Shown: positions 1-17,500 of the stretch, piece by piece
Layout of the letters: each line of letters begins with the position of its first letter
How positions within the stretch are numbered: position 1 is the stretch's first letter
Notes under the pieces: model-generated
What the model saw: only the letters and a program-made list of their open reading frames with translations
The model's database searches: none
What the model was told of the DNA's origin: nothing
NCBI GenBank assembly: GCA_947626595.1
Contig: CANQST010000003.1
Span: 8,396 to 72,395, forward strand
DNA: 64,000 bases
Source of the DNA: an uncultured Bacilli bacterium
GTDB taxonomy: Bacteria > Bacillota_I > Bacilli_A > RF39 > UBA660
Direction of reading: 5' to 3'
Program-made: the position numbers and the translations under genes

Positions 1-36
1 TTAGCTTTTTTATCTTTATTTATTAGTATCTCAATT

Positions 37-504
37 GTGGACATATTTAATTCTGCTCTGCCTGTTTTTATTGGTGTATTTTTAGATTTTATATTTATTA
101 TTATAGCTATTCATTATCTTAAAAAATCAAATAATTTAAGTGATATTGTTAATAAGGTACTTGATGAGCTAACTAAAGAATTTAATAATGAAGTAAAAAA
201 TATAAGAAAAGAACTTTTAGAAACAAAAGAAGATAATGAGAAAAGTGTAAAACATTATAAAGATGAAGTAAAAAGATTAAGCGATAATACAAAAGTATCT
301 AATAGATGGGAAGATTTTGTGAATTTTAGAAAAAAACATTATAATCAAAAAATCGAGAATTTATTGTTAGAAGTTGGTTTAAAAGAAAAAATTGAAGAAC
401 TAGGAATAAAATATATTAGAATTAATAATAACAATAAAATTAATGATGGAAGTATAGAGGACTATATAATTTATTTCGATAAAATTTTAGAAGAAAGTAC
501 CTAA
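37..504 (+). CDS. hypothetical membrane-anchored coiled-coil protein; reading frame is open back to base 1, so the N-terminus may lie upstream of the window
   Basis: ORF with a hydrophobic N-terminus and a K/E-rich coiled-coil-like middle. No stop codon in frame between bases 1 and 37. Confidence 0.45.
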   Translation: MDIFNSALPVFIGVFLDFIFIIIAIHYLKKSNNLSDIVNKVLDELTKEFNNEVKNIRKELLETKEDNEKSVKHYKDEVKRLSDNTKVSNRWEDFVNFRKKHYNQKIENLLLEVGLKEKIEELGIKYIRINNNNKINDGSIEDYIIYFDKILEEST

Positions 505-518
505 TGAGGTGAAATGAA

Positions 519-1169
519 TTGAATAAGAAAAAATTAAAAGGAGAACGTAAATGGACCTACTATACTAAAAAAATATTAGAAGATATGATAAATACTGATA
601 AAGAATTAAATAAACATAAATATAAAATATATTGTGATACTGATGAAGCAAAAAAAACTTTAAGTGCTGTTGTTTCTTTAAATAAGTATATTAAATGTTC
701 TAATAATGAGATCCATGATATAGATAAATCAATTAACGATTTTACAAATAATAAATTTCATCCAGATATTTTAATTACAGAAGATGTTATTAATGAAGGC
801 ATATCATACTCTATACCTAGATTAGTAATTGAAAATAAATATAATGGTACAAGTTTTACACCTCATGAAATTTTAGCCTATAACTATAAAGCAGATTTAC
901 ATAAAAAATTATATCCAGGTCTTAGATATGGTCTTATTATAGGAAATAGTAGTTATATTAATAATACTACTATAAGATTTGGTAATAACTTTGATTTTAT
1001 TTTATCTTTAAGTGATGAAGTATCTGATAAAGAAAAAGAAAAGTTAATGGATATTGTCAAAAAAAACCTTGATTATGCAACTAAATTGGAAAGTATAATA
1101 GATGATAAGAATAAATCAATATCATGTGTATGCATAGAAAATAATATCGAGTTTGAAGATATAAAATAA
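519..1169 (+). CDS. hypothetical protein with a PD-x(n)-ExK nuclease-like motif (HPDILI...LVIENK); copy 1 of the duplicated cassette gene
   Basis: TTG start preceded by a GAGGTGA SD. Near-identical paralog at 7795-8433. The motif is read directly from the translation. Confidence 0.6.
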   Translation: MNKKKLKGERKWTYYTKKILEDMINTDKELNKHKYKIYCDTDEAKKTLSAVVSLNKYIKCSNNEIHDIDKSINDFTNNKFHPDILITEDVINEGISYSIPRLVIENKYNGTSFTPHEILAYNYKADLHKKLYPGLRYGLIIGNSSYINNTTIRFGNNFDFILSLSDEVSDKEKEKLMDIVKKNLDYATKLESIIDDKNKSISCVCIENNIEFEDIK

Positions 1170-1235
1170 TTTATAGGCATCTATCAAGTGCCTATTTTTT
1201 GTACTTAAGCTATAATAGTTATAGGAAGTGATATT

Positions 1236-1673
1236 ATGCCTGTAATTAAAAAAAATGTAAAAGCAAAAAGTAAAATAGAAATTGATGATAACGAAATTAA
1301 CGTTTATAACCATGAAACAATTAAAAATATTATTAGATATTTAAATGCTTATATGGAGGAAATTAATTTAGATAAAAAAATTTTATATTTTAGTTTTTAT
1401 AATTCAAAAAAATATTTAGTAGAAAATTATAGTTGCTTAAATAAAAAAAATATTGTAATAGTTGATAAGGATTACTTAAATGCTGACGATATAAAACGTT
1501 ATATTATCGAACAAAAACCAAGATATATATTTATTAATTATTATAAATTAACTTCAAATAGAGAAAATTTATTATTAATGAAAGAAAAATTAGGGCATGT
1601 ATTAAATAAGATAGAAGAATATAGTAAAAAATATAATGTAAAATTTATAGTAGCAATAAATAAAGAAGATTAA
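1236..1673 (+). CDS. hypothetical protein, present only in cassette copy 1
   Basis: 145-aa ORF flanked on both sides by the repeated RBS string ggaagtgat. No recognisable motif. Confidence 0.45.
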   Translation: MPVIKKNVKAKSKIEIDDNEINVYNHETIKNIIRYLNAYMEEINLDKKILYFSFYNSKKYLVENYSCLNKKNIVIVDKDYLNADDIKRYIIEQKPRYIFINYYKLTSNRENLLLMKEKLGHVLNKIEEYSKKYNVKFIVAINKED

Positions 1674-1677
1674 GGAA

Positions 1678-2721
1678 GTGATTGGATTGTATGAATATTT
1701 AAATAGTATAGCAAAAGAATACCTTACTAAGGAATTGAGAAGAAATTTTTTTAAGAAATTTGATTCCAAAGATCTATTTAGAAGATGTGAAAAAGAAATG
1801 GATATTCTTTATGATAGAGATTTACTTTTTATTGTTGAACACCTATATAAATTTAAAAAAGAAAATAAAAATGTTAGGTATCATTTTAGAGGTACTATAA
1901 ATAATCTACTACTCTTATATGTATTAGATATAAGTTATGTTAATCCTTTAGAATATAACTTACCTTATGAGTTGTTTAATGATAAAACTATTAATGTTGA
2001 TATAATTAATGAACCTAGTATCCTTTTTATCAATTACTTAAATAAACAAGCAGACAATTTTAAAATAGTTCATGGTAATTTTATAAAAGAAGATATAAGA
2101 GAAGTAAATAAATTCTTAGAAAATCATTATTTATTGTTACCTTGTGGTTATTTAGATAATAGTATGTTTTTAAAGTTTAATGATTTAGATACATTAGAAA
2201 CTATCGATGATTATAGAAACTATAAAGATAAATATATGACAATAAGAATAGATGAAAAAGATATAATAAGATGTGATAATGTATGTCTTGATAATGTATT
2301 TACTAATGATTTTGAAAGAGAAATGTCTAAAATTTTAAAACCTAAAACCATAAATGATTATATAAAAATAAAAAGTATGGCTCATGGTACTGATGTATGG
2401 AAGAATAACCAAGATAAGTTGTTTAAAGAAAAAAAGATAAATTTAGATAATCTAATTACAACACGTGAAGATATATTAGAATACCTATTAAATCACAAAA
2501 TAGATAAAGATGTTGCTTTAGATATTACTATGTTTATTAGTCTAGGGCAAGCACAAAAAGAGCCTATTAAATGGGAACAATACATTAAAATAATGAAAGA
2601 TAACAAGTGTGAAGAAATGTTTATTGATGTTTTCTCTAAAATATTATTTATCTTTGGTAGAGGTCAAGCAGTAAGTGAGTGTTTATATGCTTTAGATAAA
2701 AATAATTATATTGGAGAGTAA
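1678..2721 (+). CDS. miniature DnaE-like protein (homolog of the Pol III alpha palm entry region, lacks PHP and distal domains, catalytic Asp pair not conserved); copy 1
   Basis: HFRGTINNLLLLYVLDISYVNPLEYNLPYELFN aligns to the DnaE [35 protein letters not shown] block. The downstream SILFINYLNKQ...IKEDIREV resembles the RDEVIxYV...AIRDV block of DnaE. The PDxDxDF catalytic position reads VDIINEP. Confidence 0.55.
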   Translation: MIGLYEYLNSIAKEYLTKELRRNFFKKFDSKDLFRRCEKEMDILYDRDLLFIVEHLYKFKKENKNVRYHFRGTINNLLLLYVLDISYVNPLEYNLPYELFNDKTINVDIINEPSILFINYLNKQADNFKIVHGNFIKEDIREVNKFLENHYLLLPCGYLDNSMFLKFNDLDTLETIDDYRNYKDKYMTIRIDEKDIIRCDNVCLDNVFTNDFEREMSKILKPKTINDYIKIKSMAHGTDVWKNNQDKLFKEKKINLDNLITTREDILEYLLNHKIDKDVALDITMFISLGQAQKEPIKWEQYIKIMKDNKCEEMFIDVFSKILFIFGRGQAVSECLYALDKNNYIGE

Positions 2722-2724
2722 AAA

Positions 2725-3393
2725 ATGAATTCAGATACTAACAAACTATTTAAAGCAACTATAACATTTGAAAATGATAATTATATGACTATAGTTTTAT
2801 ATTTAATTTATAATGGTAAAGAAAAATTAAAAAATGTAGTTCCTCAAATAAAGTTTACAACTTGGGGTAATAAATATCTCTTAACTGTTGATATAAAAAA
2901 AATTAAAATTTTAGAAAAATTAAAAAAATTAGATAGCTATGATAAATTATATATAAATGATGTTTTAGAATATGTAAAAACACATCAACAACTATTATTA
3001 GAGTATTGGAACGCTGATATACCAGAGTTTGAAGCAAAACAAATATTTTTTGATGAAACTAATGATCATTTTGGTTGTACTAATTTAAGTAAAAAAAAGT
3101 CGGGTTTACCTATGAATTTAGTTTTATATTGTTCATATCTACTTGATAGAGATAATATATTATTTTTTCAAAATGATTATGGAAAACTTAATTATAATAA
3201 TATGATTATGATGAGTGTTGATAAAGAAAATCCACAAGTATTAGTAGATAGGAAAATAAATATAAAAGAAGAAGATATGATATTTTTAAAAAATTTTATT
3301 AAAAAACATTATAAAACAATAACAGACTATAACAACGATGAACTATATGACGCTGAAATATTTGATTTAATTGATGAAAGTTTAAATAATTAA
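2725..3393 (+). CDS. hypothetical protein
   Basis: 222-aa ORF immediately after the DnaE-like gene. No recognisable motif. Confidence 0.45.
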   Translation: MNSDTNKLFKATITFENDNYMTIVLYLIYNGKEKLKNVVPQIKFTTWGNKYLLTVDIKKIKILEKLKKLDSYDKLYINDVLEYVKTHQQLLLEYWNADIPEFEAKQIFFDETNDHFGCTNLSKKKSGLPMNLVLYCSYLLDRDNILFFQNDYGKLNYNNMIMMSVDKENPQVLVDRKINIKEEDMIFLKNFIKKHYKTITDYNNDELYDAEIFDLIDESLNN

Positions 3394-3416
3394 AAATATT
3401 AGTGGAGATGATGTAA

Positions 3417-3908
3417 ATGTTTTTAAAAAAAATACAACAAAAAAGATATAATAAAATTTTATTAAATGAATTAGAAAAAAAGATAGATATTACTACAGAT
3501 AATCTTATTGAACATCTATTAATGTGTTTATTACTTAAAGATTCAACTAATAATTTAAATCACTATAAAGATGAAGTATATTCAAGTTTTAATAAGACAT
3601 GTCTACTTATTGGTAATAATAAATTTCCTACTAAAAAAATTTTATATAATATTACATTAGATCAATTTAGTGATGTTTTACCTGCTTGGATAAATGGTTA
3701 TATAGAGAATATAAATTATAAAGAAAATGTTAATATAAATAATTATGATAGTTCTTTATTAACTAATTATATAATTGAATACTATAAATGGTTAATTTCT
3801 ATTTTAGCCAAAAGATATTTTGTTAAGCATGAAGAAGTAAATGATAAAATTAATATATTAATTAATAATTATGATAAAGAAACAACTATGAAAAATAATT
3901 ATGTATAA
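3417..3908 (+). CDS. hypothetical protein
   Basis: 163-aa ORF preceded by a GGAGATGA SD. Confidence 0.4.
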   Translation: MFLKKIQQKRYNKILLNELEKKIDITTDNLIEHLLMCLLLKDSTNNLNHYKDEVYSSFNKTCLLIGNNKFPTKKILYNITLDQFSDVLPAWINGYIENINYKENVNINNYDSSLLTNYIIEYYKWLISILAKRYFVKHEEVNDKINILINNYDKETTMKNNYV

Positions 3909-4377
3909 AGTAGGTGATATAAAATTGAAAATATATTCTGTTTTAGGACACTCAAAAGAATCAACTAATTTTAATTATGATTTAGTGTTAAATGAATTGA
4001 ATAAAGATTATAATATAAATGGGATAACTAGAATTGGTTTTACTGATAATGGTTATGAAGTTTTTATAATAACTGATGATGATTTATTAAGTGATGTACC
4101 ACACTTTCATTATCGTAAAAAACAGAAAAGTAAACCTAATGAATTTCATACTTGTATAAAAATAACTGATGTAGGATATTACCATCATATAGGTAATGAA
4201 GATAAATTAAATAAAAAACAAATAGATGATTTAATAAAATTTTTAAATTCTAAACCATTAAATACTAAACATTTTAAAAGTAATTGGGAGTTATTATTAT
4301 TTAGTTGGAATAGTCAAAATAACAATATAATAGTAAATCATAATTTAGAGATACCTAATTATAATAAATTAAAATAA
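3901..4377 (+). CDS. hypothetical protein
   Basis: 158-aa ORF overlapping the previous stop codon. Confidence 0.4.
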   Translation: MYKVGDIKLKIYSVLGHSKESTNFNYDLVLNELNKDYNINGITRIGFTDNGYEVFIITDDDLLSDVPHFHYRKKQKSKPNEFHTCIKITDVGYYHHIGNEDKLNKKQIDDLIKFLNSKPLNTKHFKSNWELLLFSWNSQNNNIIVNHNLEIPNYNKLK

Positions 4378-4639
4378 ATATTAAAAAGGATACAGGGAGA
4401 AAAGACAGTGATAGGGATTTTTTTAATGAAACTTCAGTAATTTTTCCCTGTGCTTTTTTTGTTGTTTTTAAACATTTTAATAGCTTTTTAGGGAAAAATG
4501 GAAGAATTTTTGTTTCTTAAGAATTTAAAAAACACAAAATAAAATATATTTATATATAAAATATTATATAAAAAGATATAAAAAAAAATTTAATAACTTT
4601 TTCCACTTATCCCTAAATACTATATAATCATTGAAAAAC

Positions 4640-4712
4640 AACGAAAAATAGTGGGGAAAAAATTAAAAAAATCTTCTCTAAAAGATCCCTTATTTAGAAG
4701 CTTCCCCACTCA
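4640..4712 (-). terminator. putative intrinsic terminator downstream of the recombinase gene
   Basis: Inverted repeat agtgggga/tccccact. On the minus strand the downstream arm is followed by a T-rich tract. Confidence 0.35.
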
Positions 4713-4723
4713 TATACTTATAT

Positions 4724-5332
4724 TTAACTATTTTTAACTAAATTATAAAAAGTATTAGGTTTTAAATTTAGTAGTTTCATAGCTTCACGAGCCGTGATTT
4801 TCTTATTCTTCCATTTATCGACTACTTCATCAAAATTATCAGGTTTATTTATTTTAGGTCTTCCAAAAGGTCTACCTGTTTTAGTTTTGCCTGTTTTTAA
4901 AGCTAAATCGATACCCTCACGCTGACGTGTTTTAATATAAGTCCTTTCTTGTTCAGCAACATAACTTAATATCTGTAATATTAAATCATTAATAAATGTT
5001 CCTAATAAATCTTTCTTTTGTCTAGTATCAAGTAGAGGCATATCTATTACTACAATATCAGCTTTTATATTTTTAGTGATATCTTTCCACTCATTAACTA
5101 TCATTTCATAATTTCTACCTAAACGATCAATACTTTTAATAAATAGAGTATCATTTTCTCTAAGTATATTTTTTAATAATTTATATTGTTCTCTATCGAA
5201 ATCTTTACCGCTTTTCTTATCGATATAAATATCTCTTTCTAATATACCAATATTTTTAAATGCTTCTATTTGTCGTGCTTCATTTTGTGATGTAGAAGAA
5301 ACACGACCATAACCATATTCTCTTTTTTCCAT
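4724..5332 (-). CDS. small serine recombinase (resolvase/invertase family) with a C-terminal HTH
   Basis: N-terminal YGYGRVSSTSQ catalytic-serine motif. Length 202 aa, typical of the Tn3 resolvase/Hin family. C-terminal HTH-like segment. Confidence 0.85.
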   Translation of the reverse strand: MEKREYGYGRVSSTSQNEARQIEAFKNIGILERDIYIDKKSGKDFDREQYKLLKNILRENDTLFIKSIDRLGRNYEMIVNEWKDITKNIKADIVVIDMPLLDTRQKKDLLGTFINDLILQILSYVAEQERTYIKTRQREGIDLALKTGKTKTGRPFGRPKINKPDNFDEVVDKWKNKKITAREAMKLLNLKPNTFYNLVKNS

Positions 5333-5384
5333 AGTTATATTCTCCTTTCACGTTGATTATATAATTGATTATGAAAGTCATCAC

Positions 5385-5520
5385 TATTATATTTGAAAAA
5401 GTATAAAAGGTTTTCAAATATTTAAAAATTAATAACTTGACTTTTCCAAACACAAAAAACACCTAGATTATCCATAAATCTAAGTGTTTGAAAATGTGTA
5501 CTTTTTCAAATACACATTTT
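5385..5520. promoter_or_regulatory. inverted-repeat cluster upstream of the recombinase gene; candidate res/crossover site or operator
   Basis: atttgaaaa-N11-ttttcaaat, aaaatgtgta-N10-tacacatttt and ttttccaaacac...gtgtttgaaaa, all within 140 bp directly 5' of the recombinase start. Confidence 0.3.
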
Positions 5521-5525
5521 TGTTA

Positions 5526-6464
5526 TTATGCCTTACATGGTCCCCATGATGTATTAGTTTCAGTATCAATACACTTAATATCGTTACTACCACATAAAAC
5601 ACATTTAAATTGGCCACTTTTTATTTCTTTAATATTTTCTTTACTTAATGTTTTTACTCCAATATAACCATGGCAATTATTACAACAAATTTTATATTTA
5701 AAACCCTCTTCAATTGCGTCTGGATCCGAACATGTTGTAACTCTATATATTGTATTATCATTAATTAGTTTTGCATACCTTTTCCATACTTTATCATGTC
5801 CTTTAGTATTAGTAAAAGCATGTAAAATTTCATGTATAAATATACTTATAAGGACCTTTTCTGAATATTTTAATATAAGATTACTTAATTCTATAATAGC
5901 ACTATTGTTGTTATATCTTATACATTGTCCTGCAGCATATGTTAGGTTTTCATTTAATCTGTACTGAATATCTTTAGTTAAGTATTTTTTTATTTCGTCT
6001 TCTCCAATAACCTCTTTTATTACATTAAGGGCTTCGAAATACCCTAATTTTATTTTCATGCTTTGACCTTTTGTTTTTTGTACTCTTTTATTAATAATAA
6101 GAGTAGGATTTTTCTTTCTAAGTAATATTACTTGACAAGGTGCAATTCCTCTTTCTATAATTTCTAGACCAGTTTTTTTATCCACCCAACAATATTTTGG
6201 AGTTAAGTAGAAAAAGTCTTTTTTTCCCTCTATAGTTATTTCTATTTTTAATGGGATTTGATAGTTATACACTACCTCCATTATTTCTTCTAATGTTTGT
6301 CTACTATTAAAAACTAGTTGTATATTTTCGACTGTTTCACTATAGAATTTGATATCTATTTTTTTTAAACTTCCTGTAATGTCCTCAAATAGTTTATTAG
6401 ATTTTGTTAATAACCTTATTTGTCCTATTTTTAAATCCATATTTTTTTTCCTCCTTTCGAACAA
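5526..6464 (-). CDS. SprT-like zinc metalloprotease with a C-terminal Cys-rich zinc-ribbon
   Basis: HEILHAFTNTKGHDKVW (HExxH...GH..W) followed by CCNNCHGY...CVLCGS...C. Confidence 0.5.
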   Translation of the reverse strand: MFERRKKNMDLKIGQIRLLTKSNKLFEDITGSLKKIDIKFYSETVENIQLVFNSRQTLEEIMEVVYNYQIPLKIEITIEGKKDFFYLTPKYCWVDKKTGLEIIERGIAPCQVILLRKKNPTLIINKRVQKTKGQSMKIKLGYFEALNVIKEVIGEDEIKKYLTKDIQYRLNENLTYAAGQCIRYNNNSAIIELSNLILKYSEKVLISIFIHEILHAFTNTKGHDKVWKRYAKLINDNTIYRVTTCSDPDAIEEGFKYKICCNNCHGYIGVKTLSKENIKEIKSGQFKCVLCGSNDIKCIDTETNTSWGPCKA

Positions 6465-6650
6465 ATAGTTATTGTTTTTACCTCATTTCTACAACAATTT
6501 TTTTCTGTTGTAATATTTAGTTACGAAAAAAAACTAAAAAAAAATAAAAAATTTAAAATTTTTTAATAAAAATTGATAAAAAATATATATTCTAACATGA
6601 AAAAAGCTGATAAAAATATTATCAGCTAGAGACTTTCAATAATTTTTTAA

Positions 6651-7034
6651 TTATAAAAAGTCATATTTATTTCTTTCATTTATACTAATTATTATAAATT
6701 TATTGGTCTTAGTTATTTTCATTAAAGAATTAAAACCATCATCAAAAGATGTAGCATAAAAGCTTTCTTTTGGAGAATTTTCATAGATTAATTCTATGTT
6801 GTAAATGCCATAAAAATCTTTCATATCATTTACTAGATCCTCATAAATTTCTGACCTATTTAAAACTAAAGTAAAATCTTTAAATGTAGAGTAGCTAGTA
6901 CAGATGTTATTTTCAATAATATAGTCTTTACTAACTCCACTTATAGTAATTTTATGAATTTCTTTTCCTTGATACTCATCTATTGGTATTAAAAATTCAT
7001 CGTTAAATCTTATTTCTCTTAATTTTTTATTCAT
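6651..7034 (-). CDS. hypothetical protein
   Basis: 127-aa ORF. No recognisable motif. Confidence 0.45.
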   Translation of the reverse strand: MNKKLREIRFNDEFLIPIDEYQGKEIHKITISGVSKDYIIENNICTSYSTFKDFTLVLNRSEIYEDLVNDMKDFYGIYNIELIYENSPKESFYATSFDDGFNSLMKITKTNKFIIISINERNKYDFL

Positions 7035-7368
7035 TAATTAACTCCTTTGTTTTCTGTAAAATTAATGTTATAAAATTATTTGCTTTTTAGATTAGTTAAT
7101 TTTTAATGTTCACATAATATCCTCCGTTTTGTCCTAGTACTTTAATATATAAAAAAATTTAAAAAAATTTTTTAAATTATTATTTATTATTAACTTGGAG
7201 TGGTATAATGATAAAGAAACCACTATTAAAAACATAACAGTTTGTTTTTAGATTAGTCAGCTCCACCATAGTGGTTACCAAACTCGGATTTTTTAAATTA
7301 TTTAATAAGTTCGAGTTTTAATATTTAATAATATATGATAAATGTTTTTAGTAATTAAGGGGAAAAAT

Positions 7369-7768
7369 ATGAAAAAAGAGTTAATTAAAACAAAAATAAA
7401 TGTTAATAACAATAAATAGGTATTTTAAGAATTGGCGATACCGACTATATATCATTAACTGATTTAGCAAAATATTCTAATCCTGAAAATGTGATAATAC
7501 ATTGGATGAGTAATAAAGGAACATTTGATTATATAGGATTATGGGAGAAATTAAAAATAACGAAGTTGGATATTCGTCATTTAATTTAAGTCCTAAAAGA
7601 TGGATTGATAGGACAAATGCCATAGGAATATATTCTAAAGGCGGAAAATATAGCACAGGGACATTTGCTCATCCTGATATAGCATTTGAATTTGCAAGTT
7701 GGTTAAGTCCTACTTTTAAATTATATTTGATTAAAGAATTTGAAAGATTAAAAAGAAATGAAATTTAA
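7369..7768 (+). pseudogene. KilA-N domain protein gene disrupted by two frameshifts in A-runs
   Basis: Three consecutive frames read MKKELIKTKINVNNNK / IGILRIGDTDYISLTDLAKYSNPENVIIHWMSNKGTFDYIGLWEKLK / NNEVGYSSFNLSPKRWIDRTNAIGIYSKGGKYSTGTFAHPDIAFEFASWLSPTFKLYLIKEFERLK. Joined, they reconstitute a canonical KilA-N domain. The shifts sit at aataaatagg (7411-7420) and ttaaaaataac (about 7550). Confidence 0.6.
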
Positions 7769-7782
7769 AAGACAAAAAATGA

Positions 7783-8433
7783 ATGGAGGTTAAAGTGAAT
7801 AAAAAAGAATTAAATGGAGAACGTAAATGGACACAGTATATTAAGAAATTATTAGAAGATATGATAAGTAATGATAAAAAATTAAATAAACATAATTATA
7901 AAATATATTGTGATACTGATAAAGCAAAAAAAACTTTAAGTGCTGTTATTTCTTTAAATAAGTATATTAAATATTCTAATAATATAGATAAATCAATTAA
8001 CGATTTTACAAATAATAAATTTCACCCAGATATTTTAATCATAGAAGATGTTGTTAATGAAGGCATATCATACTCTATACCTAGACTAGTAATTGAAAGT
8101 AAATATAATGGTACAAGTTTTACACCTCATGAAATTTTAGCCTATAACTATAAAGCAGATTTGCATAAAAAATTATATCCAGGTCTTAGATATGGTCTTA
8201 TTATAGGAAATAGTAGTTATATTAATAATACTACTATAAGATTTGGTAATAACTTTGATTTTATTTTATCTCTAAGTGATGAAGTATCTGATAAAGAAAA
8301 AGAAAAGCTAATGGATATTGTCAAAAAGAACCTTGATTATGCAACCAAATTGGAAAGTATAATAGATGATAAGAATAAAAAAATATCATGTATATGTATA
8401 GAAAATAATATTATGTTCAAAGATAAGAAATAA
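7783..8433 (+). CDS. paralog (copy 2) of the 519-1169 protein; the motif here reads LVIESK (E to S). True start is probably GTG at 7795 after the GGAGGT SD
   Basis: About 93-95% nucleotide identity to copy 1. It has a 12-nt deletion (EIHD) relative to copy 1. Confidence 0.6.
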   Translation: MEVKVNKKELNGERKWTQYIKKLLEDMISNDKKLNKHNYKIYCDTDKAKKTLSAVISLNKYIKYSNNIDKSINDFTNNKFHPDILIIEDVVNEGISYSIPRLVIESKYNGTSFTPHEILAYNYKADLHKKLYPGLRYGLIIGNSSYINNTTIRFGNNFDFILSLSDEVSDKEKEKLMDIVKKNLDYATKLESIIDDKNKKISCICIENNIMFKDKK

Positions 8434-8472
8434 TTTTGGGCACCTGTGTTTTTACTATTTAAGTTATAGGAA

Positions 8473-9513
8473 GTGATTAAATTGTATGAATATTTAAATA
8501 ATGTGGCAAAAGAATACCTTACTAAAGAATTGAGAAGAAACTTTTTTAAAAAGTTCGATTTAAAGGATCTATTTAGAAGATGTGAAAAAGAAATGGATAT
8601 TCTTTATGAGAGAGATTTACTTTTTATTGTTGAACACCTATATAAATTTAAAAAAGAAAATAAAAATGTCAAGTATCATTTTAGAGGTACTATAAATAAT
8701 CTACTGCTCTTATATGTGTTAGATATAAGTTATGTTAATCCTTTAGAATATAACTTACCTTATGAGTTATTTAATGATAAAGCTATTAATGTTGATATAA
8801 TTAATGAACCTAGTATTCTTTTTATCAATTATTTAAATAAACAAGCAGACAATTTTAAAGTAGTTCATGGTAATTTTATAAAAGAAGATATAAGAGAAGT
8901 AAATAAATTTTTAGAAAACCATTATTTATTATTACCTTGTGGTTATTTAGATAATAGTATGTTATTAAAGTTTGATGATTTAGATACATTAGAAACTATT
9001 GATGATTATAGAAACTATAAAGATAAATATATGACAATAAAAATAGATGAAAAAGATATAATAAGATGTGATAATGTATGTCTTGATAATGTATTTACTA
9101 ATGATTTTGAAAGAGAAATGTCTAAAATTTTAAAACCTAAAACCATAAATGATTATATAAAAATAAAAAGTATGGCTCATGGTACTGATGTATGGAAAAA
9201 TAACCAAGATAAGTTGTTTAAAGAAAAAAAGATAAATTTAGATAATCTAATTGCAACACGTGAAGATATATTAGAATACCTATTAAATCATAAAATTGAA
9301 AAGAATATAGCATTAGAAATCACAATGTTTATTAGTTTAGGAAAAATGAAAAAAGAACCTAATAAATGGAATGAGTATGTTGAAGTGATGAAAATATATA
9401 ATTGTGAAGATTTGTTTATAGAAATATTTTCAAAAATATTATTTATTTCCAGTAAAGGTCAAGCAGTAAGTGAATGTTTATATGTTTTAGATAATGATAA
9501 TTATTATATATAA
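8473..9513 (+). CDS. miniature DnaE-like protein, copy 2
   Basis: 346 aa. About 90% identical to 1678-2721 over most of its length and divergent at the C-terminus. Same RGTINNLLLLYVLDISYVNPLEYNLPYELF block. Confidence 0.55.
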   Translation: MIKLYEYLNNVAKEYLTKELRRNFFKKFDLKDLFRRCEKEMDILYERDLLFIVEHLYKFKKENKNVKYHFRGTINNLLLLYVLDISYVNPLEYNLPYELFNDKAINVDIINEPSILFINYLNKQADNFKVVHGNFIKEDIREVNKFLENHYLLLPCGYLDNSMLLKFDDLDTLETIDDYRNYKDKYMTIKIDEKDIIRCDNVCLDNVFTNDFEREMSKILKPKTINDYIKIKSMAHGTDVWKNNQDKLFKEKKINLDNLIATREDILEYLLNHKIEKNIALEITMFISLGKMKKEPNKWNEYVEVMKIYNCEDLFIEIFSKILFISSKGQAVSECLYVLDNDNYYI

Positions 9514-9723
9514 ATATTAGAAAGGCTAAGAATAAAGTTTAAAAAATGAAAAAGATGGTTTTTAAAATACGTTAAAATAGAGCGTACTGATATGAAATTC
9601 GGAAAACGTACTTGATAAAAATGCATTTTTATGTTACTATGAATTTGTCAAGGAAACTTGCATAAAATAAAAAAGGGAAATACTTAACTTTTGCACGCTG
9701 AGTACTTACCCCTATATAGGTTT

Positions 9724-9759
9724 GTACTTAATCTATTGTAGATTAAGTACTATTTTTTA
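9724..9759 (+). terminator. rho-independent terminator
   Basis: Perfect 10-bp stem gtacttaatc/gattaagtac with a 7-nt loop, followed by tattttttat. Confidence 0.55.
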
Positions 9760-9783
9760 TATTAAAATTTTTCTTTAGAATTA

Positions 9784-9792
9784 TGGTATAAT
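9784..9792 (+). promoter_or_regulatory. extended -10 promoter element (TGgTATAAT) for the GNAT gene
   Basis: tggtataat lies about 25 nt upstream of the ATG at 9817. Confidence 0.4.
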
Positions 9793-9816
9793 TTCTAGTA
9801 GAAAGCAGGGGGAAAA

Positions 9817-10374
9817 ATGTTAAAACTAATTCATGCTAATGATATGAACTTTAATAGTGTAAAAAATTATTATGACAGCTTTACCGATAAATGGAAAGAT
9901 TTAAACTGTTATGCCATTTCTCATGCCCAGTATGGACCTAATGAGTATTTTGATTTCGTTAATACTTATGAAAATAATTTGTTCTATTTAGTAGACGAAG
10001 ATAAAGAAGACTATATCATTGGTTTTGGCACGATTGAAGATGCCAAAATTCTTGATTATCACAAGGACTATCTAAATGCAGGAAATATTGGCTACGGAAT
10101 AAGACCTAATGAAAGAAAAAAAGGTTATGGTACCATGCTTTTAAAACTTCTTTTATTAGAATGTGAAAAAATGGGTATGTATGAAGTATGCATATCTTGC
10201 TTAGAAGAAAATATTGGTTCTAAAAAAATAATTATCAATAATAATGGCCTTTTAGAAAAAGAATTCTTTGACGACGACAGTGGCCAATATGCCCTTAAGT
10301 TTTGGATAAAGCTCCATCCTAAAATCATAAATAGAACCAAAAGATTAGTGAAAAGACTTAGAGAAGATTATTAA
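9817..10374 (+). CDS. GNAT family N-acetyltransferase
   Basis: GYGIRPNERKKGYGTMLL acetyl-CoA binding motif (Q/RxxGxG/A-like). Confidence 0.8.
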   Translation: MLKLIHANDMNFNSVKNYYDSFTDKWKDLNCYAISHAQYGPNEYFDFVNTYENNLFYLVDEDKEDYIIGFGTIEDAKILDYHKDYLNAGNIGYGIRPNERKKGYGTMLLKLLLLECEKMGMYEVCISCLEENIGSKKIIINNNGLLEKEFFDDDSGQYALKFWIKLHPKIINRTKRLVKRLREDY

Positions 10375-11512: not shown

Positions 11513-14500
11513 ATGTTGAAATTAAGTAAAAAATATCTATTAATTCTTTTAGCTGGAGTAGTTTTCCTATTTAGTGGGAAAGTATCTGCTAAAGAAATAA
11601 TTTTACAAACCAATTCTAAAGAAGTGAACGTTGAAGATACTGTCACTTTAAATGTTTCTGTTGATAATGAAGATCAATCTTTATATGCCTTAAAAGCTAA
11701 ATTAAGTTATGATAAAGATGTTTTTGAAGTGCTAGAAGAAAAAGATTTTTCTGAAGAAATAGAAGACATTGTTTATAATGAACAAAATAATGAGTTTGTT
11801 ATTTTAAATAAAAAAGGTTCCAATGACAACTTATTTACAATTAATTTAAAAGTAAAGAAAGATGCTTTAAATGGTAAAACCACTTTAACATTAAGCAATT
11901 TAGAAGTATCAAATGGAACTGATAGCACTAAATATGATAAAAAAAGTGTTACTTTAAATGTTAAAGGTGGTAAAGATGTTACTGCTACAACTACTACCAA
12001 AAATAATAAAACTAAAAATGCTAAAAAGACTTTAAATGTTAAAAAGACACTATTAATTTCTGCTATAGCGCTCCTTATTTTAATGGCTTTAATTGCCTTT
12101 ATTAATTCTGATTACTTTGAAAAACTTAATCTAATAAAAAAAGAAAATAAAAATAAAGTATCTATTGTTATTGCGCTTATTATCATTTTAGCGGACATCA
12201 TTCTAATATCTTTATTAGGTTTTAATGCTGTTAATAAAGGTGATGTAGATAAAGATGGTAAAAAAGATTATAAAGATATACGTAAGATAAGTGAATATTT
12301 ACTTAATGTAACTAATGGTGGTAAAACATCTTCTAGTCTTAAAAATACTTTAAATTATTATAATGCTGACTACAATGGTGATGGTAAAGTTACTTTAGAC
12401 GATGTTGCCGCTCTAACTCAAGATGTAAATAATAAAACAGTTTATGAAGTAGAAGTAGCTAAAAGTTCTATAGAAAATTATTATCCTAGTAAAAACGGTA
12501 ACGTTGAAGTAAATCTATCATTTATTGTTAACCCTAGTGATAATATTTATGTTGAAAGTGTTTTTGCTAACGGCAAATACTATAAAGTAACTAAAGATAA
12601 TGATAATTATTATGCAAGTATAAAAGTTACTGATAAAGCTGGTATTAATGATATCGTTATTTCTAAAGTTAAACTAAGTAATGGTAAAGAAATAAATATT
12701 AAGCCATATACTTTAAAAGTTGATGTCTTAAAAGAAGCTCCTAGTATTAAAAACTTTGATTTTACTAATGAAGGAAAAGTATCTTTTGAACTTGTTGATA
12801 AAGATAATTCATTAGAAAAAGCTACTTTAGTAGTATTAAATAATGACGAAATAGTTACTACTAAAAAGGTAAAGAAAGATTTAAATACTTTCGAATTATC
12901 TTTAGAAAAAGGTATTAATTATACTATAAAAATACTTACTGATTATGACTTAGATAGTTCTAAAGATAATGATAAAAATGCCTTTACTGATAAATTAATT
13001 TATATGAAGCAAGTACAGCTATATGATGTTGGACTAAAACTAAATAGCGTAAGTAACAATTATCCACTTAAAGGAGAAAAAGTAACTGTTTATTTTACTG
13101 CTAGTAGTAATGTTCAAGAAGTACTTATTGATAATAAATACTATACTGTTACTAAGAATAATGATTTATATAGTTTTACTATAGATGCTCCAAATGAAGC
13201 TGGATTATCTAAATATCAAGTGACAGGTGTTATTCTAGATAGTGGTGAGTTTAGAACTAAGATGGACTTTAGTTTTGATGTCTTAAAAGATAAGCCAACT
13301 GTTAAAAATCTTATGTTTGACTACAATAGTCATACAATTACTTTCGATGTAGTTGATAAAGATAAATCTCTAAGTACTTTAAAATTACAAGTTATAAATA
13401 ATGAAACTAAAGAAGAAGCATTTACTAAAGACTTAGATACTGAAAAAAGTACTTTCTCATATAAAGCTGATTTAACTTTAGGCGCAACTTATTCCATTAA
13501 AATTACTGGAAATTATGACTTAGATAGTAAAAAAGGAAATGATAATTTCTATCAAGATTATTCTCTTTATAACCATGTTATTACTATTGATAAAGTTTCT
13601 ATTAAGAGTGTTACTGATTTAGATAATTTATTCCCTAAACAAAATGAAAATATTGAAGTAGCTCTTGATATTGATATCTATCCTACTAAAACAAAAGTTA
13701 CTAAAGTAGTTATTGATGGTAAAGAAACAGATGTTGTATATAAAGATGGTCATTATTATATAACTTTTAATGAAAAAACTTCTGGCATAAAGAAACATAC
13801 TATAAGTTCTATTATTCTTGAAAATAATACTGAAGTACCTACTAACTTTAATATTAAATTAGATGTTTTAAAGGAAAAACCAGCTGTTAAAAACTTTGCT
13901 TATTCAACTGCTAGTAAGACTATAAGTTTTACTTTAGAAGATAAAGATAAATCTATTAAGAATGCTAAGATAGTTGTTACTTCTAAAGAAAATGGTAAAA
14001 AAGTTTTAGAAGAAAAACTAGATTTAGCTAAGTCTTTATTTGAGCTTAAAATAGATTTAACTGAAAGTGCTAAATATGATGTTAATATTATAGCTAACTA
14101 TGATTTAGATAGTGATAGTACTAATAATAAAAATGAAATAGAAGAGAATTTATATACTTATCAATTAACTGTTTATGGAGTTAAATTAACTAGCGTTCAA
14201 GATACTTATTACGCTAAAAAGAATGAAGAAATAGAATTGAAGTTTAAAGCTGAAATTACTCCTGAAGATAATGGTAGTATTATAAGTGCCGTTACTATTG
14301 ATGGTAAAGTTTATGATGTAATTAGAAATATTGAAGGAACTTACAGCGTCTTTATAAAAGCAAAAGATACATCAGGAAATAAGAAATATACTATTACTAG
14401 CGCTACTGTTGGCGAAACTGAATATGCAACTAAACTAGGTTTTAATGTATATGTTTTAAAAGATAAACCTACTATAGAAGATTTATATATAGACGAAAGT

Positions 14501-17500
14501 AAAAGTGTACCAGTAATTACTTTTAACTTAAAAGATAATGACAGTGCTTTAGATAAAGGTTATGCTTATATTAAAGATGGATCAGGTAATGAAGTAGAAA
14601 AATTTACTCTTAAGAAAGGTAAGAATTCTATTGATTTAAAAGATATTGCCACTAACTTAAAAGATGGTGCGACTTACTACTTAGATGTTAAAGTTAATTA
14701 TGACTTAGACGATACTAAGAATAATAAGTATGAAACAGAAGAGTACCTTATAAATAATCATATCGTTAAAATATATAAAGTAAAATTATCTCTAGGAGAA
14801 AATAATCCTTACTACGTTAATAAAGACGAAGAAGTAAATATCAAAATAAATGCTACTGGTAAAGACTTAGATACTGTTAGAGTTAAGACATTTATTATTG
14901 ATAATAAAGAATATGAAGCTATTTATAATAATGGTAGTTACTATGTAAAAGTTAAAACTCCTACTACTTCTGGAATAAAGACATATAACATTACTAAAGT
15001 AGTTTTAACTAATGATATTGAAGTATCTTCAAGTTTAGAAATTAAACTAGATGTTCTAAAAGATACTCCTTATATAAATAAATTTAATCTTAATGAAGAA
15101 AATGGTTTAATTACCTTTGAACTTGTTGATAAAGATAAAGCTTTCCAAAATGGTGATGTATCTATTTCTAATGAAACAGGAAATTTAATTACTAAAGAAG
15201 TAAAAGAAAAGACTACAATTACCTACAAGTTCTTAGAAGATATGAATTATAATATTAAAATTACTGGTAATTATAATCTTGATAGTGATACTACTAATGA
15301 GGAAAATTTATATACTGATGTTGAAATGTTTAGTCATGACTTTCTTATTGGAGGTAATTATCAATTTACTTTAAATGATTTATCTATAACAGACTCTTTA
15401 ACTAAGAGTGAAAAACCTGTTGTATCATTCACAAGTTCTAATATGAAGAATGCTACTATTAAAGAAGTTGTTATTAATGGTAAAAAATATAATGTCTCTA
15501 AAGTAGATGGTAATTATTATGAAGTAATTCTTAATGATGCCCAAATGACATCAGGTAAACATAAAGTTGAATTAGAAAGTGTTACTCTAGATACTATGAA
15601 GACTTTTAAGAATAATTTAGACTTTTCTACTAATAGCTTAACTTATAGTGTTTTAAAAGATGCTCCAAGTATTAAGAATATTAATCTTACTAGTAATAAT
15701 ACTGATAAGACTATAACTGCTACTTTCAATCTAGAAGATAAAGATACTACTTTAACTAGATTAAAAGCCCTACTAGTTGACTCTGCTGATAAGATAATTG
15801 CTGAACAAGAATTAACTCCAGAGATGGTTTACTTATTTGATACTTCTAGTGTTACTTTATCTTACTTAGATAATGCTGATGGACATGTTGATGGTTATTA
15901 CAAAGTTAGATTTTTAGCGGACTACGATTTAGGAGAAGAAAAATATCTTTATAGTGATAAAAATGTTGGTGAAAAAGATATTTTAGTTCAAAAAGATTTA
16001 ATTTATATTAAAGATATTTATATTGCCGATAGTAGAGGTAATAAAATAGATAATTTATATCCAAGTAAAAAACAAAAGAATTATCAAGTTGTAGTAGATG
16101 TATATGTTGATAATAGTATTAATGATTATGCTAGAAGTAAATATGGTAATAGAGCTTATCAAAAAGTCTCTGTTGTAACTATTAATGGTGTTGATTATAG
16201 TGCCGATAAACTAAATGATTATAGGTCTAAAATTACTTTAGATGTCCCTGATACCTCAGGTATTCTTAACTTAACTGTTAATAGAGTTCAACTTGAATAT
16301 GCTGATTACAATGTTAGCTTTAGACAATTCTACTCTGTACCTGAAAAATCTATTAAGATAGATGTTTTAAAAGATACTCCTACTATTAAAAATTTAAGTA
16401 TTAAAGAAGACTATGCTAAAGCAAGCGCAACATTCGATTTTGATGTTGTCTTAGACGAAAAAGCTAAAGAAAAAGACGAAAGTTTCAAAAATGGTAGTAT
16501 TGCTCTAGGTGAACTTCGTCAAAATATAAATAGAGGTCATAATTCTATTACCTTTAATAATATTAAGAAAGACGAAAACTTAGATTTAGTCTTTGAAGGA
16601 AGCTATGATCTTGATACCGATACTTTAGAAACAACAGATCAAAATGAATATGAAAACAAAGAAATCTATAGAGTAAATTATGGTCTATATGATAAAGAAA
16701 CATATGAAGATATCAAAATAACAGATGGTCTATCTCTAAGTAAAAATAATAATAACTATTTTGAAAAGAATGAAGATATCAAATTAAACTTTAATGTAAC
16801 TGGCATCAAAGAAGAATTAGGCTTAGATGTTGAAAAAGTTATTATTAAAGATAAAGAATATCCTATAACTAAAAAAGATAAGTATGAAGTTACTTACGAT
16901 AGTTATAATACTTTTGGTCAAAAAGAAATTACTATTACTGGTGTTGTTCTAAGTAATGGTAAGAAAGTTGACTTAAAGAAACCTTATACTTTTAAACCAG
17001 AAATACTAAAAGATAATATCAGTTTAGATAATTATAAAGTAGAAGTTCAAAATAATAAGATTAAAATTACTTCTAACTTAAAAGATAGTGATAATTCTTT
17101 AATTAAAGCTAATATTAAAATAACTACTGAAAATGGTAAAGAACTAGTAAATAAACCATATGAAGAAGAAATTACTATTGATAAAGTTAAAGATGTTTTA
17201 AGATATTATGTTGAAGTATATGCAAGTTATGATAGAGATATTGATATTACTGAAGGAAGTTCTAACTATTATGAGACTAAATTACTAGAAGAAATAATTT
17301 CCTTTGAAGAAAATGTTATTGAACTTAAAGATATTACTGACATAAATTTATATAAAGCTGAAAAAGATAACTCTATAAATCTTTTAGATACTGTTAACGT
17401 TAATGATTTGGAGAAAAATTTAGATAACTACTTTATTGAAATTAATATGGAAAATGCTCCAAGTGTTCATGCTAATATTAAGAAAATAACTACTAAAGAT

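Follow-up and report, generated by a model that had tools for sequence, protein, structure and literature searches.

What are a nuclease-fold protein and a miniature relative of a replicative DNA polymerase doing side by side, twice, at one locus of an uncultured Bacilli bacterium? The locus lies at 519–9513 of the 64,000-nucleotide stretch analysed here (contig CANQST010000003.1 of assembly GCA_947626595.1, positions 8,396 to 72,395; the whole stretch is hereafter the window, and coordinates are those of the window unless a locus is named). A preliminary description, made from the letters alone, had reported a duplicated gene pair in direct orientation, about 90–95% identical and 7 kb apart, and this proved accurate. 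Copy 1 (519–2721) and copy 2 (7783–9513) lie on the same strand at a spacing of 7.26–7.28 kb, and are 92.0–92.5% identical by BLAST over 663 nt and about 1048 nt. A repeat search of the window returned direct repeats at 517–707/7793–7983 (91%), 715–1014/7979–8278 (97%) and 1666–1965/8461–8760 (93%), and in a pairwise alignment the homology took in both genes, beginning at the start codon of the first and ending at the stop codon of the other. All four open reading frames (ORFs) are open in the window, namely two of 216 amino acids (519–1169 and 7783–8433), which we call PDxK1 and PDxK2, and two of 347 and 346 amino acids (1678–2721 and 8473–9513), which we call mPolC1 and mPolC2; protein identity between the copies is 90% for the shorter protein and 88% for the longer one, the mini-PolC. 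Copy 1 is in fact a three-gene block, as a 469-bp segment with an ORF for a 145-amino-acid protein (ins145, 1236–1673) is missing from copy 2, and PDxK2 and mPolC2 are adjacent for that reason and no other. Four assemblies from different samples (L065–L068; related loci carry L numbers, and clusters and individual proteins P numbers) match the window at 99.9%, L065 covering both copies (99.9% identity across 18.4 kb), so the arrangement is no assembly artefact. What deserves attention here is the mini-PolC family and its link to helicase genes, not the duplication.

A miniature PolC and its helicase neighbours

By sequence and by predicted structure, mini-PolC is a polymerase relative nearer to PolC than to DnaE. 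mPolC1 (plus strand) matched the Pfam models PF07733 (3.3e-6; only the start of the model, positions 6–95 of 260) and PF17657 (5.8e-5; part of the finger domain), both above the gathering score, while its residues 208–339 matched the NCBIfam PolC models (1.7e-23) and the PolC chains 9qpc (4.9e-15) and 3f2b in the PDB. The AlphaFold 2 (AF2) model of mPolC1, with a predicted local distance difference test (pLDDT) score of 94.7 and a predicted template modelling (pTM) score of 0.91, superposes over its full length on PolC 3f2b/9qrn (Foldseek E 1e-13, TMq 0.74), its 347 residues spanning about 465 PolC columns. Thus the protein had rightly been described as miniature and degenerate and as a relative of the polymerase III (Pol III) alpha type, but its nearest kin is PolC and not DnaE; the profile and fold comparison proposed at the time gave significant Pfam, NCBIfam and Foldseek matches to the palm and fingers of PolC and no match to PF02811.

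The protein shares with PolC (3F2B, 9QPC; NF001688) the N-terminal helices of the palm, the Pol-beta-like palm sheet and the fingers. Unlike PolC, which has about 1450 amino acids, it begins at the palm and ends after the fingers, with the N-terminal domains, the OB and HhH regions and the C-terminus of PolC missing. When the protein was aligned with Enterococcus faecalis PolC by way of intermediate relatives, it proved to lack the Zn-finger insert, the thumb and all pre-palm and post-finger parts, the thumb segment appearing as an alignment gap; nor are there PHP, exonuclease or clamp-binding parts, and neither PF02811 nor PF14579 is matched. Of the features of a C-family polymerase, then, palm and finger homology is present, and the catalytic Asp triad is absent along with the PHP, thumb, clamp-binding, OB and HhH parts. 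The catalytic strand PDIDLNF of PolC aligns to INVDIIN of mPolC1, so that the first catalytic Asp is replaced by N106, a position at which relatives carry N, K, T, S, C, D, A or H. Each of the three catalytic positions varies across an alignment of 46 family members and stays below 90% conservation (the third, D192, was assigned by strand order alone, with PDIDLNF and KLDILGH as the PolC reference strands), and the deoxynucleoside triphosphate (dNTP)-binding motifs GS, VRKGK and KAHAAAY are represented by RGxxNN, an unconserved stretch and GRGQAVSEC. The family comprises at least 120 clusters at 90% identity, nearly all of 340–360 amino acids. We read mini-PolC as a conserved pseudo-polymerase, no gene fragment, that is probably non-catalytic.

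A second, more PolC-like subgroup has 323–435 amino acids (674 with an N-terminal extension) and was found in L024 (8139–13973, an IMG/VR contig), L052 (7785–8756), L055, L061, L062 and L059 (6471–8495). Its members keep the finger motifs VRKGK and PRAHA and lack the first catalytic Asp. An MBL/RMMBL nuclease gene immediately precedes mini-PolC in L024, where two large serine recombinase genes lie downstream, and in L059 mini-PolC is flanked by DnaB_C upstream and RtcB downstream. In related metagenome-assembled genomes, a single locus may contain two divergent mini-PolC genes, paralogs of about 47% identity that stand in tandem or with a few genes between them (L002, 10001–12082; L003, 10001–11032 and 12847–13875). 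Family-wide, the invariant Q245 of mPolC1 stands in a Q-[DE]-x-L-[FV] string (residues 244–249, about 2407–2424 of the window), which is similar to a beta-clamp-binding pentapeptide. The likeness may be a coincidence; PolC has NAEELI at this place, and the string falls in a predicted helix of the AF2 model.

Viral sequences offered little of this kind. With mini-PolC as tblastn query, the phage collection gave partial matches to the fingers only, at 27–33% identity, and one candidate locus, H2, was set aside because its PolC gene is full-length; its record bears the flag 'UNVERIFIED_ORG'. A scan of IMG/VR found a single distant relative, and the family is therefore not typical of recognised viral contigs. 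No compact viral analogue appeared in a fold search of BFVD, which returned phage DnaE proteins of at least 650 amino acids and two partial matches at low TM (466 and 525 amino acids). PADLOC, PHROGs and NCBIfam held no named family for mini-PolC beyond the PolC/DnaE models. We also set aside short ORFs of about 100 amino acids that single linkage had joined to the family, as they had no convincing similarity to it.

The strongest functional signal that we found for mini-PolC is its link to DnaB_C-type helicase genes. A DnaB_C gene directly follows mini-PolC in L003 and L006/L007, lies two genes downstream of it in L010 and is directly upstream of it in L059; in L003, L006 and L010 the DnaB_C protein has retained both Walker motifs, A and B. 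The gene order in L010 is HTH (helix-turn-helix, minus strand), PDxK, 315, RsgI_M, 135, mini-PolC, 107, ZnR_DnaG, DnaB_C and, further on, a resolvase; in L020, mini-PolC precedes DnaA-like AAA+ pieces inside an integrase/Mob_Pre element. The two are also fused, with mini-PolC preceding DnaB_C in P0364, P0378, P0380 and P0382 and following it in P0362. These fusion proteins belong to the more PolC-like subgroup, and in P0364 Walker A is intact, with IDYLQL and SQLNR also preserved. Fusion in both orders together with repeated adjacency is classical evidence of a physical or functional partnership. In the window itself the relative of DnaB_C is ins145 (1236–1673, plus strand; copy 1 only). Aligned to DnaB_C, the ins145 family gave an hhalign probability of 92% (E 6.8e-7), the aligned part being that which follows the P-loop. 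The protein has no GxxxxGK[ST], FSLEMS has become FSFYNS and IDYLQL INYYKL (read from the sequence), and with the P-loop and catalytic Glu missing it does not have the Walker A/B motifs and catalytic Glu of a DnaB-family helicase. The ins145 family recurs in L001, L008, L006/7 and L010. As the gene directly upstream of mPolC1, ins145 makes a second 'dead' replisome-derived protein adjoining the dead PolC.

From this genomic evidence we infer the partnership, and any specific role is hypothetical. Most likely, and with about an even chance of being right, mini-PolC would be a non-catalytic partner of DnaB_C-type helicase modules in the replication of mobile elements. It could serve as a scaffold that binds the helicase module and replaces the N-terminal collar of DnaB. 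Its task might be to position that module on DNA, whether at an origin or at a primer-template junction, or else to link it with Pol III of the host. The nuclease would act on DNA in the same early programme, for instance in the processing that goes with replication or recombination, or in an attack on competing DNA.

Several observations weigh against this proposal. Adjacency and fusions are the whole of the evidence for the link, and the fusions occur in the distant subgroup, at about 27–31% identity to the window protein and outside its subfamily. A helicase gene is missing from the vicinity of several mini-PolC loci: in L029/L032 the order is SSB (single-stranded DNA-binding protein), one further gene, HTH and mini-PolC, followed by restriction-modification (R-M) or GmrSD cargo, and in the L022 group mini-PolC and a PD..ExK-motif protein lie between housekeeping genes. 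The window's own DnaB_C relative, ins145, is itself degenerate and is missing from copy 2. Lastly, a terminator-like hairpin stands between PDxK1 and what follows it, and the right end and att sites of the island that carries the locus (see below) were not located.

Parts of such an arrangement have parallels. RSF1010 RepA and the T7 gp4 primase-helicase are examples of a DnaB_C-only helicase and of a helicase fusion; they have in common with the present proteins a DnaB_C/RecA-type ATPase without the N-terminal collar of DnaB, either stand-alone (212–270 amino acids here) or fused, but the partner here, whether fused or encoded alongside, is a dead polymerase and not a primase. The C-terminal polymerase module of eukaryotic Pol epsilon is inactive. 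In bacteria, ImuB is a catalytically inactive homologue of the Y family (PMC12926913, PMC3919608). With these two, mini-PolC shares a polymerase fold devoid of conserved catalytic residues and encoded with, or fused to, replication proteins; it differs from both in belonging to the C family, in being much smaller, in its location on mobile elements and in having, to judge from the genes, a DnaB_C-type ATPase as its putative partner. Broad surveys of bacterial polymerases recognise four C-family groups, discard fragments that have no active site and describe no inactive C-family group, and our literature searches on truncated or inactive PolC on mobile elements, on PcfJ/PcfK contexts and on the Pfam accessions returned nothing relevant. 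Thus we found no description of the mini-PolC family or of its helicase link in the literature or in family libraries. The catalytic core of bacterial replicases is considered to be a C-family polymerase, and if the proposal is true, a pseudo-polymerase joins the parts with which mobile elements build or hijack a replisome. The family is also a testable handle on the replication of small islands in uncultured gut Firmicutes. More tentatively, and with the balance tilting against it, mobile elements of gut Firmicutes may encode a whole unrecognised class of dead C-family polymerase modules that are dedicated partners of DnaB_C helicases and are sometimes fused to them; such modules would be the bacterial counterpart of the inactive scaffolds that tether eukaryotic replicative helicases, and in some lineages might be paired with nucleases as an exclusion or defence device.

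The nuclease-fold protein and its pairing with mini-PolC

The first gene of each copy had been described as PD-(D/E)xK-like, and this stood up well. Residues D83, E105 and K107 did not vary among the homologues of PDxK, 14 close and 70 distant, and were assigned to the predicted strands 84–92 and 95–108 of a confident AF2 model (pLDDT 92.4), in which both the restriction-endonuclease-like alpha/beta core and the catalytic D...(D/E)xK motif on adjacent strands are recognisable. As far as sequence and model tell, PDxK is a restriction-endonuclease-fold protein with an intact PD-(D/E)xK site, belongs to an uncharacterised family and is a putative metal-dependent nuclease. No model in Pfam, NCBIfam, PHROGs or PADLOC matched it, and searches of PDB sequences with its profile and with two other PD..ExK-motif proteins gave matches at chance level only. 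A word-indexed search delimited a close family of 13 clusters; a full HMMER scan with the PDxK profile found 438 representatives (at 50% identity) with E <= 0.001, mostly of about 190 amino acids.

Is PDxK then a classical restriction enzyme? We consider this unlikely and rejected it, because the window-type element has no methyltransferase and the genome holds two copies that are 90% identical. Indeed, Pfam and NCBIfam scans detected no methyltransferase domain in the first 11.4 kb of the window; L010 and L027 do have an N6_Mtase gene, upstream of HTH, but the window-type element does not. PDxK also differs from the type II endonucleases of the NgoMIV/Cfr10I/Bse634I/AgeI type and from NucC in having only 216 amino acids, at 5–16% identity to them, in the lack of an adjacent methyltransferase in the window and of a cyclic-nucleotide sensor context, in its two 90%-identical genomic copies and in going unrecognised by Pfam and PADLOC. 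In three sampled element types (L010, L025 and L027), PDxK is the first gene after a divergent HTH repressor, and in the window-type element (L063–L065) a gene for a 376-amino-acid protein stands between repressor and PDxK. In a further variant, L001/L008, the first gene after the repressor encodes a different protein of 217 amino acids (L001 7927–8580), so the nuclease does not always occupy this position. The motifs of this 217-amino-acid protein look uracil-DNA-glycosylase-like by eye, and it has no Pfam match.

The pair had been presented as a two-gene cassette, and this did not hold: copy 1 has a third gene, and among 31 distinct mini-PolC loci the nuclease profile matched only in the window type and the L010 type. 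The neighbourhood comparison suggested in the preliminary description thus recovered the pair in these two types, but not in the remainder of the 31. In L010 three genes intervene between PDxK and mini-PolC, homologues of PDxK occur without mini-PolC in L016–L018, and the mini-PolC family is far the larger, with its 120 or more clusters at 90% identity against 13 in the close nuclease family. Conserved adjacency and co-occurrence, as in a toxin-antitoxin or other obligate two-gene module, were not found. On this comparison of loci, PDxK and mini-PolC mostly do not appear to form a self-contained cassette, and PDxK would not be an obligate partner.

Other nucleases do occur beside mini-PolC. 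They are a 196-amino-acid protein with the motif PDLVI..IIEIKY in the L022 group, Cas4/DUF2779 in P0117 and the MBL/RMMBL protein of L024; the 196-amino-acid protein resembles PDxK in its motif and no further (9 bits, hhalign probability 19%). In a count of nuclease motifs, 6 fell close to mini-PolC and none at a distance (p = 0.019), a comparison that was made post hoc and on matches that are not independent. The L022 group (L022, L034, L038, L045, L047 and L048, all from human gut) contains mini-PolC and the 196-amino-acid PD..ExK-motif protein, at about 8337–10038 in L022, between a GGDEF gene and YibE/F genes, near tsf/frr and with no other element genes. This looks like a stand-alone pair in a chromosomal context.

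Such arrangements invite the alternative that the two genes form an autonomous defence, exclusion or addiction cassette, in which the dead PolC would be sensor, decoy or regulator to a nuclease effector, perhaps guarding against phage factors that target PolC. Copy 2 would suit this, with both genes intact beside a decayed KilA-N gene at the island edge, as would the adjacency of differing nucleases to mini-PolC in unrelated loci (the L022 group, in many human-gut assemblies, P0117 and L024), the motif count just given, with its non-independent matches, and the R-M, GmrSD and McrBC cargo that adjoins mini-PolC in L029, L032 and L020. However, PADLOC-DB 2.0 had no match for either protein at E <= 0.1, most mini-PolC loci have no member of the nuclease family, the two genes are three genes apart in L010, and the other nucleases resemble PDxK at motif level only. 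Moreover, a near-identical strain has a nonsense allele of PDxK1, and the terminator-like hairpin sets PDxK1 apart from the genes downstream. We regard the cassette as a doubtful explanation. The observation that the pair corresponds to no nameable known pair was borne out, as nothing in PADLOC, PHROGs, NCBIfam or the literature matches it.

The mobile island and the history of the two copies

The window begins inside a mobile island and is its right part. The near-identical contigs L063, L064 and L065 (L063 and L064 97–99% identical to the window, L065 99.9%) extend to the left of window position 1, and there hold dapF, a large serine recombinase (508 amino acids), a D5_N/DUF5906 primase-helicase (808 amino acids), SSB, a protein of 60–80 amino acids, HTH_3 on the opposite strand and the 376-amino-acid protein (L063 2563–9218; L064 3017–9693; L065 1–2710), the last of which reaches into the window and is followed by PDxK1. 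In L063 and L064 the order goes on from the 376-amino-acid protein with PDxK, ins145, mini-PolC and onward. Integrase, repressor switch, helicase/primase and SSB are thus all present in one element, as in an element replication module. Of the three guesses offered for the pair in the preliminary description, a replication module of a degraded element fits best, except that the element is not degraded as a whole, given the integrase, primase-helicase, SSB and repressor upstream. GC content is 20–24% over 1–10 kb and 28–36% further right.

Related elements, from metagenome-assembled genomes of rabbit, mouse and human gut labelled as uncultured Bacilli, Clostridia or Tenericutes, are a mosaic of common families. 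These include HTH_3, SSB, a small serine recombinase, the ins145 family and the families that we call fam1 and fam5, and further DnaB_C ATPases, a 92-amino-acid DnaG Zn-ribbon, the D5 primase-helicase, SprT-like proteins, PcfK/PcfJ, N6 methyltransferase and SIR2. With phage-inducible chromosomal islands (PICIs) or satellite-like islands, or with integrative mobilizable elements, the element has in common a large serine recombinase, D5_N/DUF5906, SSB, a divergent HTH_3 and KilA-N; it differs in that no terS, capsid-redirecting genes, relaxase or att sites were identified here, and in carrying mini-PolC, ins145 and the fam1/fam5 genes, which described islands are not known to hold. We do not assign an element type; about 17 kb of the window-type element showed no capsid or type IV secretion system (T4SS) genes, and no relaxase or oriT was seen in it either.

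The composition of these elements raises a second alternative, that the dead PolC, the DnaB_C protein without Walker A and the isolated DnaG Zn-ribbon are replisome mimics for establishment or anti-defence, which would titrate, redirect or shield replication proteins of the host or a helper phage, in the manner of leading-region genes of conjugative elements. Fragments of three replisome-derived kinds do stand in the same operons (mini-PolC, ins145 and, in L010, the 92-amino-acid Zn_ribbon_DnaG), and the string at the invariant Q245 may be clamp-binding-like. The neighbours are also of an establishment or leading-region type (SSB, orphan N6 methyltransferase, SprT-like, PcfK/PcfJ, SIR2), SSB and methyltransferases being enriched in leading regions (PMC11541004). 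Yet the window-type element has no visible relaxase, oriT or T4SS, and the Q..LF string is predicted to be part of a helix. Walker A and B persist in the DnaB_C partners (L003, L006, L010) and likewise in the fusions, which points to a working helicase and not a decoy, and overall we think the mimic explanation improbable.

As for the two copies, the preliminary description took both to be maintained, and the dN/dS comparison (nonsynonymous to synonymous substitution rates) that it proposed agrees with purifying selection, the Nei-Gojobori ratio between the copies being 0.355 for the nuclease and 0.227 for mini-PolC. The 35–72 substitutions between them are mostly synonymous or conservative, and the catalytic D/E/K of PDxK are kept. 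That both copies keep intact frames is true of all four ORFs in the window but not of L065, where the copy-1 nuclease gene (L065 2725–3375, corresponding to 519–1169) carries the nonsense change G708T (E64*). Divergence is mosaic, with dS = 0 in mini-PolC codons 181–240 and 0.5–0.7 in codons 241–346. Between the window and L065, single-nucleotide polymorphisms (SNPs) cluster in 2896–3022 and 8670–9041, and 7 of the 10 in mPolC2 carry the copy-1 base, a pattern that fits gene conversion between the copies or read mixing in assembly. The copy-2 allele type makes a cluster of its own, with 22 sequences, and is also found in other contexts; in L009, a copy-2-type mini-PolC is followed by the genes that here follow copy 1. 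We rejected a recent duplication in situ on account of these other contexts and of the dS of 0.5–0.7 in part of mini-PolC. The related contig L063 (97–98.6% identical) leaves the window at 7269, which is the left edge of the block made up of the KilA-N remnant, PDxK2 and mPolC2.

The repeats might thus be two alleles of an early (replication or establishment) operon segment of a serine-recombinase island in low-GC gut Firmicutes, a reading for which we see the case for and against as roughly in balance. Copy 2 (KilA-N pseudogene, PDxK2 and mPolC2; 7270–9556) would then be the remnant of a second, related element in which both genes have stayed intact, and could have been partly homogenised with copy 1 by gene conversion. 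Alternatively, copy 2, or one gene in each copy, might be a decaying duplicate without a function of its own, its frames intact by virtue of recent origin and gene conversion. The nonsense allele of PDxK1 in the 99.9% identical strain, the gene-conversion-like SNPs and the segment with dS = 0, the decay of the adjoining KilA-N gene and the absence of ins145 from copy 2 all speak for decay, but the dN/dS of 0.23–0.36 with mostly synonymous or conservative changes and a preserved catalytic D/E/K, the dS of 0.5–0.7 in the 3' third of mini-PolC, a value too high for recent copies, and the copy-2 allele type with its own 22-sequence cluster and other contexts such as L009 speak against it, and we give the idea little credence. 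We hold it very improbable that mini-PolC is an active minimal polymerase or nucleotidyltransferase, for although the Pol-beta-like palm is kept, the window proteins have D at two of the three carboxylate positions (D108 and D192) and the distant subgroup keeps the finger motifs VRKGK and PRAHA, the first catalytic Asp is N106 and variable in relatives, the three catalytic positions are neither invariant nor conserved at 90% or above, the GS and KGK-type dNTP-binding motifs have become RGxxNN and an unconserved stretch, and there is no thumb.

Neighbouring genes and other features

The genes noted earlier between the copies, a resolvase, a SprT-like gene and a decayed KilA-N gene, were recovered as such. 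The small serine recombinase of resolvase/invertase type (4724–5332, minus strand, 202 amino acids) matched PF00239 (2.8e-23) and phrog_125 'DNA invertase' (1.8e-42), and a small serine recombinase is present in 8 of the 31 distinct mini-PolC loci. It is an element gene, and its presence does not show that the repeats are recombination substrates. The SprT-like metalloprotease-domain protein (5526–6464, minus strand, 312 amino acids; PF10263, 1.3e-11) has counterparts in the L010 and L027 elements. To its right lies an element gene for 127 amino acids (6651–7034, minus strand) with homologs in L006/L007, L063 and L065. The KilA-N pseudogene (7400–7768, plus strand, start approximate) matched PF04383 at 9.1e-11 over profile positions 62–106 only. 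Three-frame translation places its N-terminal part in another frame, its last 75 codons being the ORF 7541–7768, and the end of the domain coincides with the junction to copy 2. Directly beyond it, PDxK2 (7783–8433, plus strand) may start with GTG at 7795, the codon at which cluster P0122 begins; mPolC2 (8473–9513) is likewise on the plus strand.

To the left of PDxK1 (519–1169, plus strand), the window opens with the C-terminal 155 codons (37–504, plus strand) of the gene for the 376-amino-acid membrane/coiled-coil protein, which are identical to the C-terminus of the 376-amino-acid ORF in L065/L063. The gene begins upstream of the window, after the divergent HTH_3 repressor gene, and its product has no Pfam family match. 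A consensus scan for terminators, which found 5 sites against 1.3 expected, placed predicted, terminator-like hairpins on the plus strand directly 3' of PDxK1, with a T-run (1173–1195), and 3' of mPolC2 (9724–9750). Scans for tRNA and Rfam families had no match in the window, nor did positions 1–10000 have a megablast match in the plasmid collection.

Three conserved genes, all on the plus strand, follow mPolC1. The first (2725–3393, 222 amino acids) and the third (3901–4377, 158 amino acids) are paralogs of one family, fam1, and cluster with genes that follow mini-PolC in L001, L002, L003, L006, L009 and L010; in L006 the pair is fused as one protein of 347 amino acids with a DUF4160 match (1.3e-6), and fam1 stands after mini-PolC in at least six locus types. 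Between them lies the fam5 gene (3417–3908, 163 amino acids), a conserved neighbour with homologs in L001, L003, L009 and L010 and without a family match in Pfam or NCBIfam scans.

In L029 (9248–15027), L032 (9187–13451) and L020 (11081–16786), mini-PolC is directly followed by defence cargo and then by a small serine recombinase, the cargo being type I R-M, an EcoRI-like methylase with two GmrSD genes, or Dcm with McrBC. Further right in the window, 11513–21049 is a single ORF of 3178 amino acids with a hydrophobic N-terminal segment and internal repeats of about 190 amino acids (spacing 570 nt). Its product in the 99.9% identical contigs L065–L068 carries Peptidase_M26_C, and a shorter homolog adjoins the mini-PolC region in L003.

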